From NCBI RefSeq assembly GCF_003018235.1, contig NZ_CP027437.1: a DNA stretch of 64,000 nucleotides. One strand, written 5' to 3'. The position numbers were made by a program, and so were the translations under genes. The DNA comes from Escherichia coli (GTDB taxonomy: Bacteria; Pseudomonadota; Gammaproteobacteria; Enterobacterales; Enterobacteriaceae). The notes beneath the pieces are model-generated. The model saw nothing but the letters and a program-made list of their open reading frames with translations. It did no database searches and had not been told where the DNA came from. Of this stretch, positions 12,888 to 39,216 are shown one piece after another. Every line of letters begins with the position of its first letter. The stretch's first letter is position 1.

Positions 12888-14262
12888 CAGCCACACTGTT
12901 GACGACGGACTTTATCTGTTCGTCGGTGCCTGCACGGTTTCAGCCCCCGGAAGGGCTGCGTTCGGGGCTTCACCCCGTTCCCCGGCCTCAGGGTCGCGAT
13001 GCGTTTTCTGCTGCATGACCGTTCAGAACCTCCGTTGATACTCGTCACTCATTACCGTTCGGGCCTTCGGGTGTCATGCCCTACTATGCCCTCTGCTGAC
13101 TCCTGTCCGCCGGTCAGCGCCCCTTACGGTACGCTCAGTTCTGGATACAGAACGACGGACAGGCCTCCCGGGGTAAGTTCAGCTGCCTTCACCACACACC
13201 TGTCCGATTTACCACCCCGGTTCTTGATGGTTATGGCCTTCGCAATTCTTTGCTTGCTCCGCCAACCGGGTAGGCCTCGTATCGGATTTCTGTTCGTCAG
13301 GTCATGGATTTGCTTCACGCTTCCTTCAGACCCCGCTTCACGACGACGCCCTTGCGCTTCGCTAGTCCTTCGCTACCATCAGGCTGGACAGGGGACTTTC
13401 ACCCCCGAGCTGCTGAACATGCCCGGCACACAAAGAAAGCCCCTCCGGAGAGGGGCTGGTATGCGCAATGTTCCATCATCTGCATGGTGCCGGGTGCCTC
13501 CCGGTGAGTCCGGCATCAGCATCCGAACCCGCAATATTGCCCAAATAAAGCTAAAGGATGATTGTGACCTGCTGATTTGCCCCTCCGCACAGGGGGATTC
13601 ACCATGCAGACATTTTCTTAGCAAAATCACTGCGTGCCAGGCAACTCCCAACTACATAAAATGTGGAGTTTGTGGCATTTATGCACATAACTCACAGGAA
13701 TTATCTTAAAAAAGCTGACAGGGCTTCCCCGGCAACGTAATACCATCATTCCCTGAAATGACATCCCCGTATTATCGACAGGCTCAAAAAGGAGCCAGTC
13801 ATCTGAGGATGACTGGAAAAAGGAAAGATAAAAAATTATTCATCATACAACCTTCGTTGCAAGGGAGAATCCTGCGGTGCAGCAACATACAAAAACATAA
13901 GCCAACTAACAATATGCAGGCATAGCATTTTCGGATTTTGTTATATGGCACGGCAACTGAATGCTCACCTGATATACAGTCCGGTATAAAATTGCAAAAA
14001 AAAACGCCAGTTAAGGCGGCATTTAAACAGATAACAGGATTTTTTCGTAATTTCAACAACGTCGGGGTGGCGCATCGTCAGTCCCTGTCAGGAAGTACCA
14101 GCACTCCCACCAACAATGCACCACCCCATTCAGCGTTGTAAAACACGGCACAGGAACTATCAATGTTTTCTGTTACAGTTCGGGAAAAACGATAAACACG
14201 CCACGGGCTCTTTTTGCTGTGAATTAAAAACGGTCCTGAAAGCCGGCTCATCATTTTTTACT

Positions 14263-14339
14263 GGACCGTCACCGGGGACTCGAACCCCGCACTCTCAACA
14301 TAAAAGGTTGATGCTCTTTCCTGATGAGCTAGTGACGGC
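14263..14339 (-). tRNA. phage-encoded tRNA, anticodon read as UUU (Lys-type loop CUUUUAU); identity uncertain
   Basis: 77-nt cloverleaf with 7-bp acceptor stem CCGTCAC/GTGACGG, T-arm CGGGG-TTCGAGT-CCCCG, CCA end. Confidence 0.55.
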
Positions 14340-14340
14340 A

Positions 14341-14416
14341 TGGTGGCCCTTGCTGGATTTGAACCAGCGACCTGGCGGTTATGAGCCGCTCGCTCTCACC
14401 ACTGAGCTAAAGGGCC
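14341..14416 (-). tRNA. phage-encoded tRNA with CAU anticodon, ileX/ileZ-like (tRNA-Ile2 or Met)
   Basis: 76 nt GGCCCTTTAGCTCAGTGG...CTCATAA...GGTTCAAATCC...CCACCA; close to E. coli ileX as I recall it. Confidence 0.8.
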
Positions 14417-17802: not shown

Positions 17803-18125
17803 ACTTTCAGGCCCCTCTCATGTAACCAGTGGGCTGCACGCAGCCTGGCGTTTTCCTCACCGGCAAGCAGTGAGCGGATAATCCCGACCGCCTCGCTGTC
17901 GTCGTCCTTCACCGCAGTATGAAGCGTGATACCCCGGGCCACGCCACGCTTTATCGTGATGACGCCTTTTTTCTCCAGCGCGCGAAGATGCTCCACCACT
18001 GCATTCACCGAACGGTATCCCAGCATGGTTGCCACCTCCTGATTGGTTGGCGGGAAGCCACGTTCTTTCTGATAAGAAATCAGCATATCCAGCACCTGCT
18101 GCTGGCATTGAGTTAACGTCGTCAT
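17799..18125 (-). CDS. LexA-type winged-helix DNA-binding protein (no peptidase domain)
   Basis: LTQCQQQVLDMLISYQKERGFPPTNQEVATMLGYRSVNAVVEHLRALEKKGVI resembles LexA N-domain. Confidence 0.55.
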   Translation of the reverse strand: MTTLTQCQQQVLDMLISYQKERGFPPTNQEVATMLGYRSVNAVVEHLRALEKKGVITIKRGVARGITLHTAVKDDDSEAVGIIRSLLAGEENARLRAAHWLHERGLKV

Positions 18126-18607
18126 TAAGCCCCCACGTAATTCCCTGACAGATACCACTCTTCACCCGATGCAGCGCTCTTACTGCTTTTCCGTAAGCAC
18201 CGCTCACGACGCGCCAGAAAATTGTTTCGTTCTGACTGGGAGTGGCTTTCACGGAATGCCGCCATCCACACGGTTGCAGCACGACGGTATAAGCCCCTCG
18301 ACTCCAGTTCTTCAGCCTGGCGGGTCAGGCACAAAATCACCCGGGGGTCGTTAGTGCCGACATAGCAATTACGCACAGGTCTGGTTTCACAAACTGGTTC
18401 CGGCTCCTGCGCTCTCTCAGTCAGGCGCGGGAAATGTCTGCGTGTATATCCTTCGCAACGGTGATCCACACGCCCACTCTGACGTAACTTGCTTGCTGAC
18501 TGCAGAACGCGCTGCCGTGAGTAACCTGCAAAAGCATCCGCAATGTCTCCGGAAGTACACCCCGGATGGGCTTCAATGAATTTCTGAACGTCATTTAACA
18601 GACTCAT
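18125..18607 (-). CDS. PerC-like transcriptional regulator with N-terminal extension
   Basis: LESRGLYRRAATVWMAAF resembles PerC family core motif; assignment from memory only. Confidence 0.4.
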   Translation of the reverse strand: MSLLNDVQKFIEAHPGCTSGDIADAFAGYSRQRVLQSASKLRQSGRVDHRCEGYTRRHFPRLTERAQEPEPVCETRPVRNCYVGTNDPRVILCLTRQAEELESRGLYRRAATVWMAAFRESHSQSERNNFLARRERCLRKSSKSAASGEEWYLSGNYVGA

Positions 18608-18609
18608 GA

Positions 18610-19428
18610 TCACCCCCTGAATCCTGCCGGGATCTGGCTGTAATCCACGTTGTCGTAACTGGATTTGAAGTACGGGTCCTCACGTCTGGCTGCAGATACC
18701 GCAGGAACTTCCCAGGATTCTTCGAAATGACGATCCGGACCAAAGAACGTGACAGCCTGTTTCACAAATTGTGTGCCGCTGTTACCCATCGCAGATACCC
18801 AGCCCGCATAGCGTTTCACACCTTCCAGCATGGTTTCGGGGTTTACCCCCTCATTCAAACGGGCTTTCCAGGCTTTGAAGGCTGCAGATTTTGAATTGCC
18901 ACCAGCACGTTTGGGATATGCCAGCCATGCCTGCTCAAACTCCGGAGAGTATTCCGGTCGGTTTGAACGAACTCGCACGGACTCATCAACTGATGCACCA
19001 ACAGCTATTGGTTCATTGACTGATTCTTTGACTGGTTCAAAAGAGTGACTGGTTCTGGGTGAATCTCCTGCACTACCCCCTGGTGCAACTCCTGCACTAC
19101 CTGGTGAATTTGCTGCACCAGATAATGAATTATTTGCACTACCCCCTAGTGAATCTCCTGCACCATCCAGATGAAGGAGATAGATATTACTTGAGTTACC
19201 TTTTTCACCTTTCCGGGTGACTTTTTTTACCAGCCCGGACTCACAAAGGGCCGCAATATGATTCATCACAGAACGTTTGCTAATCTCGCACTGGTCAGCA
19301 ATATGCTGGTAGCTGGGCCAGCACTCACCCTGATCGCTGGCATTATCAGCCAGCTTGATCAGAACCAGTTTTCGCAATGGATTACCCACTCGAATTTTCA
19401 TCGCTTTAACCATCAGCTCCATACTCAT
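18610..19428 (-). CDS. replication initiator (lambda O-like N-terminal HTH domain, DnaT-like C-terminal domain)
   Basis: N-terminal wHTH; G/S/A-rich linker encoded by DNA repeats; C-terminus ...DNVDYSQIPAGFRG parallels host DnaT ...[13 protein letters not shown]. Confidence 0.7.
   Translation of the reverse strand: MSMELMVKAMKIRVGNPLRKLVLIKLADNASDQGECWPSYQHIADQCEISKRSVMNHIAALCESGLVKKVTRKGEKGNSSNIYLLHLDGAGDSLGGSANNSLSGAANSPGSAGVAPGGSAGDSPRTSHSFEPVKESVNEPIAVGASVDESVRVRSNRPEYSPEFEQAWLAYPKRAGGNSKSAAFKAWKARLNEGVNPETMLEGVKRYAGWVSAMGNSGTQFVKQAVTFFGPDRHFEESWEVPAVSAARREDPYFKSSYDNVDYSQIPAGFRG
19060..19165. repeat. iteron-like direct repeats inside the initiator gene (putative origin)
   Basis: five copies of a (C/T)TGCAC core at about 19067, 19092, 19113, 19135, 19159, spacing 21-25 bp. 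Confidence 0.45.
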
Positions 19429-37936: not shown

Positions 37937-38476
37937 ATGTCTTCCAGAGTTTTGACCCCGGACGTCGTTGGTATTGACGCCCTGGTACACGATCACCAAA
38001 CCGTTCTGGCAAAAGCTGAAGGCGGTGTGGTTGCCGTATTTGCTAACAATGCCCCGGCGTTTTATGCCGTCACGCCTGCACGCCTGGCTGAACTGCTAGC
38101 GCTGGAAGAAAAGCTGGCGCGTCCGGGAAGCGATGTCGCTCTGGACGATCAACTCTATCAGGAACCGCAAGCTGCTCCCGTAGCTGTACCCATGGGGAAA
38201 TTCGCCATGTATCCGGACTGGCAACCCGATGCCGACTTTATCCGCCTGGCGGCGCTATGGGGCGTGGCACTAAGAGAGCCGGTGACCACCGAAGAACTGG
38301 CCTCATTCATTGCCTACTGGCAGGCGGAAGGTAAAGTCTTTCACCATGTGCAGTGGCAACAAAAACTGGCGCGCAGCCTGCAAATCGGTCGTGCCAGCAA
38401 CGGCGGACTGCCGAAACGAGATGTGAATACGGTCAGTGAACCTGACAGCCAAATTCCACCAGGATTCAGAGGGTAA
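37937..38476 (+). CDS. dnaT: primosomal protein DnaT
   Basis: 179 aa [21 protein letters not shown]...IPPGFRG. Confidence 0.95.
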
Positions 38477-38478
38477 CG

Positions 38479-39216
38479 ATGAAAAACGTTGGCGACCTGA
38501 TTCAACGCCTGCAAAAAATGATGCCTGCCCATATCAAACCTGCTTTCAAAACGGGTGAAGAACTACTGGCCTGGCAGAAAGAACAAGGGGCGATCCGCTC
38601 CGCCGCTCTCGAACGTGAAAATCGGGCGATGAAAATGCAGCGCACCTTTAACCGCTCCGGTATTCGTCCACTGCATCAGAACTGCTCCTTTGAGAACTAT
38701 CGCGTTGAGTGTGAAGGGCAGATGAATGCGTTAAGCAAAGCGCGCCAGTATGTCGAAGAGTTTGACGGCAACATCGCCAGCTTCATCTTTTCTGGTAAGC
38801 CAGGAACCGGCAAAAACCATCTGGCGGCGGCAATCTGCAACGAGCTGCTGCTACGCGGTAAATCCGTATTGATCATCACCGTGGCCGATATTATGTCGGC
38901 GATGAAAGATACCTTCAGGAATAGCGGTACCAGCGAAGAACAACTGCTTAACGATCTGAGCAACGTTGATCTGCTGGTGATCGATGAGATCGGCGTGCAG
39001 ACCGAATCGAAATACGAAAAAGTGATCATCAACCAGATCGTCGATCGCCGCTCTTCTTCCAAACGCCCAACCGGGATGCTGACCAACAGTAATATGGAAG
39101 AGATGACCAAGTTGCTGGGCGAACGCGTGATGGACCGTATGCGCCTGGGTAACAGTTTGTGGGTGATCTTCAACTGGGATAGCTACCGTAGCCGGGTAAC
39201 GGGTAAAGAGTATTAA
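38479..39216 (+). CDS. dnaC: helicase loader DnaC
   Basis: 245 aa; Walker A GKPGTGKNH, Walker B LLVIDE. Confidence 0.95.
   Translation: MKNVGDLIQRLQKMMPAHIKPAFKTGEELLAWQKEQGAIRSAALERENRAMKMQRTFNRSGIRPLHQNCSFENYRVECEGQMNALSKARQYVEEFDGNIASFIFSGKPGTGKNHLAAAICNELLLRGKSVLIITVADIMSAMKDTFRNSGTSEEQLLNDLSNVDLLVIDEIGVQTESKYEKVIINQIVDRRSSSKRPTGMLTNSNMEEMTKLLGERVMDRMRLGNSLWVIFNWDSYRSRVTGKEY

Follow-up and report, generated by a model that had tools for sequence, protein, structure and literature searches.

An origin of replication that lies within the gene of its own initiator is the textbook paradigm of phage lambda, whose O protein ends in TDWIYGVDL and binds P through its C-terminal part. The subject of this work is a phage replication initiator gene of comparable plan, found in a stretch of 64,000 nucleotides of Escherichia coli DNA (NCBI RefSeq assembly GCF_003018235.1, contig NZ_CP027437.1); this whole stretch is referred to as the window. 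The gene belongs to the early-right operon of a lambdoid prophage that is integrated beside yjjG in the chromosome. In lambda, iterons and an AT-rich tract in the middle of O make up the origin (PMC7466680). The same protein as ours is known from the Eru6 replication region of Stx phages (PMC8044961, PMC8951638) as an HTH_36 protein in a region without O and P; Llarena and co-workers use Stx2a_WGPS2 as the type phage of their 'Eru6' region (PMC8951638). The passages returned from these two papers propose no replication mechanism, and a term search of them gave no mention of iterons, DnaT or 'primosomal'.

Other systems are close in part. DopC and the 'HTH_36 + DnaT_C' initiators (PHROGs 1032, 1408 and 2509) resemble our protein in joining an HTH_36 N-terminal domain to DnaT-related C-terminal sequence, and Brezellec et al. 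(2017; PMC5509034), who report no iterons in dopC, proposed an exchange of initiator and loader genes between phages and hosts. The DnaD and DDBH2 domains and the phage SPP1 replisome organiser system are also counted among its nearest known systems. E. coli DnaT, finally, possesses an N-terminal oligomerisation domain and a highly acidic PriB-binding linker, according to PMC13377028.

Here we describe a candidate lambda-style origin inside the initiator gene and a short DnaT-type tail at the end of the protein, whose occurrence in phages is coupled to DnaC-type loaders. The architecture, the repeats, their co-variation with the recognition helix, the constraint at the level of DNA and the link between tail and loader were all computed. 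Taken together they suggest an initiator that recruits the helicase loader of its host.

Results

Identity and architecture of the initiator

RefSeq annotates the same 819-bp coding sequence, whose product reads MSMELMV...IPAGFRG. It is 99.3% identical to orf39 of the Shigella phage SfV and to its counterparts in mEp460 and Ayreon ('replication protein'), and 97.4% identical to the helix-turn-helix (HTH) protein of Stx2a_WGPS2, the type phage of Eru6; the same gene is also present in a series of Stx2c phages. Residues 3–271 match phrog_270, 'replication initiation protein' (E = 3.1e-88), and by this full-length similarity the protein belongs to the HTH_36 phage initiators (PHROG 270; SfV orf39/Eru6 type). 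At the DNA level, the 2-kb region around the gene matches 2934 of 5426 complete E. coli genomes. We are dealing with a replication protein that is already known and named and that is very common in enterobacterial prophages.

An AlphaFold2 model, built from a 41-sequence alignment, has an N-terminal domain (residues 1–87) with a predicted local distance difference test score (pLDDT) above 90 and the layout H-H-H-H-strand-strand, a disordered linker from residue 88 to about 155, and a confident, small, helical C-terminal domain (helices 162–170, 180–192, 197–214 and 225–228) that is followed by a low-confidence tail. In Pfam the N-terminal domain matches HTH_36 (E = 2.7e-11) and DnaD_N (E = 5.6e-5), and a Foldseek search with the full-length model returned winged-HTH (wHTH) matches only, all via this domain (wHTH regulators and the DnaD N-domain). 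Phage_rep_O (PF04492) was absent from the Pfam matches up to an E value of 10. An earlier note on this DNA had proposed a replication initiator with an O-like DNA-binding domain. The initiator and its N-terminal DNA-binding domain (HTH_36 wHTH, phrog_270) are borne out; 'O-like' is right for the role of the domain and wrong for its family, which is HTH_36/DnaD_N-like. The linker (residues 88–150) is rich in Gly, Ser, Ala and Asn and contains about 8 acidic residues in 63 (hand count). The C-terminal domain, which we call RepC1, may be weakly DnaD-like, and a search for it in a set of 5.8 billion proteins returned mostly fragments.

The overall plan is that of lambda O: in both proteins a flexible linker joins a DNA-binding domain at the N-terminus to a C-terminal part that binds a partner. 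Our initiator differs from O in the family of its N-terminal domain and in what follows RepC1: there is no P gene, and a DnaT-type tail takes the place of the P-binding end. The next gene is yfdN, and no homologue of P was found in the window.

A DnaT-type tail in place of a DnaT domain

The initiator ends in ...DNVDYSQIPAGFRG, with NVDYSQIPAGFRG as the tail peptide. Its alignment with DnaT covers the last nine residues only, of which eight are identical (SQIPAGFRG against SQIPPGFRG); agreement with the fuller DnaT pattern ...S-x-P-D-x-x-I-P-x-G-F-R-G is likewise limited to these nine. The globular RepC1 domain is not DnaT-like: it has no Pfam match, an hhalign probability of 2.9% and no fold match, and the Pfam scan detected no DnaT family anywhere in the initiator. 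We also looked in it for the three-helix DnaT_C domain (PF17948), which binds single-stranded DNA (ssDNA), for the DnaT N-terminal oligomerisation domain and for the acidic PriB-binding linker, and found none of them. The DnaT-like C-terminus that the earlier note had claimed is therefore real as a tail and refuted as a domain: similarity confined to the last residues, the outcome that the note itself had set against domain-level homology, is what pairwise alignment gives. The open reading frame (ORF) that it had taken for host DnaT is indeed DnaT, at a distance of about 19 kb and not 18 kb.

What the two proteins have in common is the motif S-Q-I-P-x-G-F-R-G-COOH. The initiator differs from DnaT in having neither the PF17948 domain, nor the oligomerisation domain, nor a strongly acidic PriB-binding linker, and in being, in all probability, a sequence-specific origin binder and not a fork-restart factor. 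DopC-type proteins carry the DnaT_C domain proper, whereas the initiator has RepC1 and the tail only; its iterons, of which none were reported for dopC, are clear. E. coli DnaT itself matches PHROGs 1032, 1408 and 2509 with residues 73–179, and two relatives of our initiator, from Salmonella phage S135 and Klebsiella phage RAH1, resemble the HTH_36 + DnaT_C type by sequence signature.

The motif is strongly conserved on both sides. In an alignment of 28 DnaT sequences that are 73–95% identical to the E. coli protein, I173, P174, G176, F177, R178 and G179 are invariant, and so are S167, P169 and D170. Of the tails listed from a set of 120 Enterobacteriaceae DnaT sequences, nearly all retain ...S(E/Q)PDxxIPxGFRG, and only one listed tail variant departs from IPxGFRG. 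Among close relatives of the initiator, position 268 varies (A/E/T/V) and I-P-x-G-F-R-G is otherwise kept, the same pattern as in DnaT.

Three initiator designs end in IPxGFRG in modules that have no phage loader gene. The first is the SfV type, with the HTH_36 N-terminal domain of our initiator and RepC1; the second combines a different HTH_36 N-terminal domain with a different C-terminal domain, RepC2 (PhiR29_2, 720R4); the third has a 'replisome organiser' N-terminal domain and RepC1 (Tritos, 689R5), and its tail, SEPDTEIPPGFRG, is almost the DnaT sequence. The resemblance to DnaT is, by these comparisons, that of a portable, modular tail and not of a domain. No earlier description of an IPxGFRG tail came up in literature searches on the motif itself, on DnaT in connection with prophage replication proteins or on predicted DnaT–DnaC structures.

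The tail is tied to DnaC-type loaders

Loci of one initiator family were collected by means of the conserved DNA block described below (L093–L212), and loci with less than 2.5 kb of sequence downstream were left out of the count; the results of this comparison refer to the matches listed. Twenty-eight of the loci encode a tail: in 26 yfdN follows with no loader or helicase match, in one there is no match, and in one (L105) a DnaC homologue comes next. Of 52 tail-less loci, 48 are followed by P-like, DnaC-like plus DnaB-like, DnaB-like or primase-helicase genes. The tail of L105 is RDINQISRPDNSVPPGFRG, and 5 nt downstream begins a 246-residue protein that is colinear with, and 48% identical to, E. 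coli DnaC; no DnaB gene follows it. The extreme C-terminus changes with the partner even where the RepC1 domain is constant. Tails ending ...DYGQSDCNW or ...ENLNF precede divergent DnaC-like plus DnaB-like genes, ...EGW(K/E)DF(I/L) and ...TDWIYG... precede a P-like gene, ...RKTREGSL a DnaB-like gene and ...GYVFFDR a primase-helicase gene. The last 8–10 residues fall into discrete classes according to the neighbouring gene and look like a C-terminal 'partner code'.

The association also holds when it is approached from the loader. We took 80 viral loci (L213–L292) that encode DnaC homologues 46–50% identical to E. coli DnaC, 79 of which could be evaluated. In all 79, the upstream ORF ends in RDxNxISxPDxxIPxGF(R/K)G, at or overlapping the start of the dnaC-like gene. 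The tail-bearing proteins belong to at least nine families with differing N- and C-terminal domains. RepC1, RepC2 and an NGYQGLF type are among them, as is a type (L248) that its sequence signature marks as DnaT_C-like. A DnaB-like gene was found downstream in none of the 80 loci. In the host, dnaT and dnaC are adjacent in the same order as these phage pairs of initiator and DnaC homologue, so that the phage motifs stand immediately upstream of DnaC homologues in the layout of the host pair. In L248 and six similar loci, the C-terminal half of the upstream protein carries a DnaT_C signature (by eye) and a full DnaT-type tail, and the DnaC homologue (46–50% identical) follows immediately. Such loci are a phage counterpart of dnaT–dnaC, which fits a host pair domesticated from phage (compare PMC5509034).

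Our prophage itself contains no P-, DnaC- or DnaB-like replication gene by profile searches, annotation and tblastn, as the earlier note had stated for P- and DnaC-like loaders. When the window was searched by tblastn with DnaC, phage DnaC-like, DnaB-like, P and primase-helicase proteins, only host dnaC and positions 11535–11867 responded. The latter match was rejected as a loader: it is IstB of an IS21-family element, beside the transposase gene of that element, an insertion that lies in the late region and outside the replication module. Since the prophage is loaderless and its initiator carries the DnaT tail, host DnaC is probably borrowed. That the phage recruits the host primosome through a DnaT mimic, as had been suggested, is in part plausible: the motif is linked to DnaC-type loaders, and a tail mimic may recruit DnaC–DnaB, whereas nothing points to the whole PriA–PriB–DnaT primosome.

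Could the tail have another partner? In a cryo-electron microscopy structure of the preprimosome, the DnaT C-terminal region touches PriA through a small (640 Å2), hydrophobic and conserved interface. A hydrophobic I-P-x-G-F peptide could make such a contact, and the tail might then dock PriA (or PriB) and not DnaC, with the initiator replacing DnaT in a PriA-dependent primosome at the opened origin. Some room is left for a PriA-binding role because the published text, in the parts available, names no DnaT residues of this interface. We nevertheless regard it as unlikely. A DnaC homologue adjoins the tail in all 79 evaluable loci and a PriA or PriB homologue in none; among the matches listed, tails track loader type across one initiator family, contrary to PriA docking; and a tail bound to PriA would compete with DnaT yet still need DnaT to bring DnaB–DnaC.

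We are more sceptical still of a tail that only assists ssDNA binding or self-association, as has been suggested for DnaT residues 154–179, while a different region of the initiator, or transcription/R-loop routes, would bring in the helicase. DnaT84–179 does bind dT30, with an apparent Kd of 9.9 μM and a Hill coefficient of 2.7, compared with 27 μM and 2.1 for DnaT84–153 (PMC4132743). One would not, however, expect a generic DNA-binding tail to keep to the DnaC-type loader clade (79/79) or to be missing beside P, DnaB-like and primase-helicase partners, and the motif has little positive charge (one Arg).

Dyad iterons and a conserved candidate core inside the gene

The five (C/T)TGCAC repeats that the earlier note had placed in the linker-coding DNA are all present. 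The plus-strand sites of [CT]TGCAC are at 19068, 19092, 19113, 19134 and 19158; successive sites are 24, 21, 21 and 24 bp apart and stay in frame, and Tandem Repeats Finder reports a period-24 array of 4.6 copies (19059–19163). On the coding strand every unit proves to be a dyad of 15 bp, GTGCA-N5-TKCAC, which four sites fit exactly and the fifth with one mismatch. All dyad sites fall within 105 bp (19059–19163) and no other occurs in the 64 kb; by chance 0.45 would be expected, and none of 100 shuffles reached the count observed. Because the spacings are multiples of three, the repeats also give a peptide repeat, GSAG/GSAN.

Homologues chosen by protein similarity have arrays of their own 21–24-bp units at the same position, different in DNA and entirely different in the encoded peptide. 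In several of them a 5-N5-5 dyad is visible by eye: Vibrio phage D75 has GTGAY-N5-GTCAC, Min27 has GGGCA-N5-TGCCC and Salmonella phage S135 has GCACA-N5-TGTGC. Across about 40 distinct helix variants, the dominant half-site follows the class of the recognition helix: SKRSVMNH pairs with GTGCA (20/20, plus variants), GRSTVKxH with GGGCA, and SKSAVRNH or SRTAVRNH with TGCCA. A plain low-complexity linker is ruled out because homologues keep dyads while the peptides differ and the half-site co-varies with the helix. Among prophages whose N-terminal domains are 100% identical, there are 5, 6 or 8 iteron units (loci L013–L092); these loci, collected by N-domain alignment, are all 99–100% identical in that domain and inform on copy number and tail polymorphism only. 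The EPVK/EPVN peptide units, one for each 12-bp GAACCAGTCAAA-type unit, also vary in number among near-identical prophages, and it is the numbers of both kinds of unit that make the initiators range from 268 to 294 residues.

In Min27, the protein annotated as O (L005, 2501–3169) shares the N-terminal domain (66% identity over residues 1–85). After the conserved block its frame becomes low in complexity and rich in Arg and Ser, with no recognisable C-terminal domain, which may reflect a frameshift; the large gene annotated as 'P' that follows resembles a primase-helicase.

Directly beside the proximal iteron lies a block of 37 bp, nearly invariant in the DNA alignment and in fixed register with the iteron in all seven phages examined. 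We compared codons between the window and seven initiators that were selected on the similarity of their proteins; the hosts of their phages are E. coli, Salmonella, Klebsiella, Aeromonas and Vibrio. Where the amino acids are identical, so are the codons in 187 of 189 cases (99%) in a 33-bp stretch of the block, compared with 378 of 926 (41%) in the N-terminal domain, a marked contrast although the pairs of this comparison are non-independent and a p-value would carry no meaning. Synonymous sites of the N-terminal domain are essentially randomised across these phages; the block, by contrast, appears to be selected as nucleic acid. Within it the decamer GAACCAGTCA occurs twice, and the 12-bp tandem unit comes after it. 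Searched for as a DNA pattern, the block was found in at least 120 viral contigs, always at the junction of the N-domain family with one of many C-terminal domains. DnaA boxes were sought near the origin and none was found.

The block is most likely the origin core, the site of opening or of helicase entry, and may also serve as a recombination joint, as it coincides with the mosaic junction. Together, iterons and block would form a lambda-style origin inside the initiator gene, as the earlier note had supposed from the position of the repeats; we make this call because helix-matched dyad iterons adjoin a DNA-constrained core. As in lambda, the origin would lie within the initiator gene, with several initiator-specific dyad iterons about 20–24 bp apart in the linker-coding part and a second element adjoining them (PMC7466680); from one relative to the next the iterons change in sequence together with the initiator; and some members of the same N-domain family have the lambda-O-like ending ...TDWIYG... 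and a P-like gene next. Unlike the lambda origin, this candidate has five iterons of another sequence, and the adjoining block, at 39% GC, is not clearly AT-rich.

It is also conceivable, though about as doubtful as a DNA-binding tail, that repeats and block form no origin, the repeats being a slippage-expanded low-complexity peptide linker and the block a recombination 'linker' or an mRNA or peptide element for module exchange. The block lies exactly at a mosaic junction, where one N-domain family meets many C-terminal domains, it is not strongly AT-rich, and both repeat types vary in copy number. Yet a peptide linker fails to explain why every unit is a DNA dyad and leaves the co-variation of half-site and recognition helix unexplained, the encoded peptides being entirely different, and a recombination linker would have no need to keep a constant register with the last dyad, or 99% synonymous identity among phages of Vibrio, Aeromonas and enterobacteria in which substitutions have saturated the flanking sequence. 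One block could be origin core and recombination junction at once.

The prophage around the initiator gene

In the closest RefSeq relative, the gene order is cI(ymfK) / cro(ymfT) – ymfL – DUF4222 – ash – 78-aa ORF – initiator – yfdN – LexA-like – rusA – KilA-N – DUF968 – Q. The N-terminal part of yfdN weakly matches a MarR-type PHROG. In other loaderless, tail-bearing phages a small gene also occupies the loader slot: yfdN in the SfV and PhiR29_2 types, and a LygF-like ORF in Tritos and 689R5. Coordinates of such slot genes are 3910–4167 in L010 and 3880–4302 in L011.

The IS21-family element and the group II intron reverse transcriptase (together 10201–13709) are in the late-regulatory region; the annotation of the closest RefSeq prophage, compared without alignment, shows neither of them in the equivalent region. 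Two tRNA genes (Lys-UUU and Met-CAU; 14262–14416, minus strand) lie between the Q-like region and the insertion, and the closest RefSeq relative has tRNA genes for Arg, Arg and Ile in the annotation of its late region. The features of the window are collected in Table 1.

Table 1. Features of the window that are discussed in the text.
Feature	Coordinates	Strand	Basis or remark
Replication initiator gene (SfV orf39/Eru6-type HTH protein)	18610–19428	-	272 aa; phage comparison, PHROG, RefSeq
N-terminal winged-helix DNA-binding domain, residues 1–87	19168–19428	-	Pfam, AlphaFold2, Foldseek
Iteron 1 (distal), GTGCAGGAGATTCAC	19149–19163	-	Exact GTGCA-N5-TKCAC
Iteron 2, GTGCAAATAATTCAT	19125–19139	-	One mismatch; read from sequence; in register with the period-21/24 array
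Iteron 3, GTGCAGCAAATTCAC	19104–19118	-	Exact match
Iteron 4, GTGCAGGAGTTGCAC	19083–19097	-	Perfect palindrome arms; matches both strands
Iteron 5 (proximal), GTGCAGGAGATTCAC	19059–19073	-	Exact match; directly abuts the conserved 37-bp block
Conserved putative origin core, 37 bp, CCAGAACCAGTCACTCTTTTGAACCAGTCAAAGAATC, encodes P-RTSHSFEPVKES	19022–19058	-	Candidate unwinding/loading site; codon comparison
12-bp tandem unit GAACCAGTCAAA, 2.3 copies	19012–19039	-	Tandem Repeats Finder; overlaps the core
C-terminal globular domain RepC1, residues ~160–245	18694–18951	-	Motif FExxWxxYPKRxGxNxK...TFFGP
DnaT-type C-terminal tail SQIPAGFRG, residues 264–272	18613–18639	-	8/9 identical to the DnaT C-terminus
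yfdN (PerC family)	18125–18613	-	NCBIfam ANR/PerC, phrog_1324; start overlaps initiator stop; loader slot of relatives
IS21-family element	IstA-like ORF 10201–11013; IstB helper ATPase 11220–12002		IstB: NF006616, E = 2e-140
Group II intron reverse transcriptase/maturase ORF	12012–12896	-	TIGR04416, E = 2e-107
Host dnaT	37937–38476	+	NF002770, E = 2.8e-105; tail SQIPPGFRG at 38447–38473
Host dnaC, proposed tail partner	38479–39216	+	Annotated dnaC in the matching RefSeq genome

Discussion

The data suggest the following model. The N-terminal winged helix, probably as a dimer, would bind the five 15-bp dyad iterons, which happen to encode the Gly/Ser/Ala-rich linker of the same protein. The resulting nucleoprotein complex would destabilize or mark the adjacent 37-bp core, where duplex opening and helicase loading would take place. 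At the opened origin the tail would dock host DnaB6–DnaC6 via DnaC, as DnaT is thought to do at restart forks, and RepC1 probably assists by DNA binding or by self-association/oligomerization. We give the full model, with the origin inside the gene, iteron binding by the wHTH and docking of the tail to host DnaB–DnaC via DnaC, a probability of roughly 60%. Its parts are not equally secure. For binding of the dyads through the winged helix the comparative evidence is strong; recruitment of host DnaC–DnaB by the tail is plausible. That the region functions as an origin, that the core is the unwinding site and that the tail contacts DnaC is what we infer from sequence comparison.

Several points weigh against the model. 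With regard to the contact itself, direct contact of DnaC with PriA, PriB or DnaT has not been demonstrated according to PMC11087952; the 2026 preprimosome structure led to the suggestion (PMC13377028) that DnaT's N-terminal domain, and not the tail, might recruit DnaB/DnaC; and deletion of DnaT residues 154–179 lowers ssDNA affinity and cooperativity in vitro (PMC4132743), such that the tail may act on DNA and not on a partner. The comparative evidence has its own weak spots. Part of the 79/79 association may be physical linkage because the DNA that codes for the tail overlaps the start of the dnaC-like gene. The 28 tail-bearing loaderless loci, among the matches listed, come mostly from one phage lineage and amount to about four independent architectures. 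Relatives exist that have neither the tail nor a detectable loader (Vibrio phage D75, L098, L178 and L191), and the tail in the window matches DnaT over nine residues compared with about 19 for the tails beside phage DnaC. The core is only moderately AT-rich (39% GC by hand count; 37.5–45% in 40-bp windows). The prophage, finally, may be disrupted or defective because an IS21 element and a group II intron reverse transcriptase are inserted in it.

With respect to the literature searched, the new elements are the map of the candidate origin, with helix-matched dyads and a DNA-constrained core that recurs in phages from five host genera, the insight that what the initiator shares with DnaT is a portable tail and not a domain, and the near-perfect coupling of this tail to DnaC-type loaders. 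For the initiator family, which includes 'Eru6' Stx phages, in which replication affects toxin output, this provides a concrete map of the candidate origin, and with the core as a pattern it is already possible to look for further origins of the family in sequence data.

By the account of two recent papers (PMC11087952, PMC13377028), the way in which DnaB–DnaC is recruited by the restart primosome is unknown; a DnaC variant, 1331, is reported to block the PriA–PriB pathway (PMC11087952). The comparative pattern singles out a seven-residue motif of DnaT for this question, with DnaC as the likely partner. A tentative extension, to which we assign somewhat less than even odds, is that the DnaT tail IPxGFRG is the missing element by which the PriA–PriB–DnaT preprimosome engages DnaC in DnaB6–DnaC6. 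It would be a portable docking peptide from phage modules, dnaT–dnaC being a domesticated copy of such a module, and loaderless phages would keep the peptide and take over host DnaC. The tail pattern also supports a phage origin for the dnaT–dnaC operon. If the tail is indeed a docking peptide, SfV, many Stx phages and the prophage described here would take over the DnaC of their host, and the C-termini of phage initiators would constitute a code of short motifs that name the loader or helicase to be recruited.

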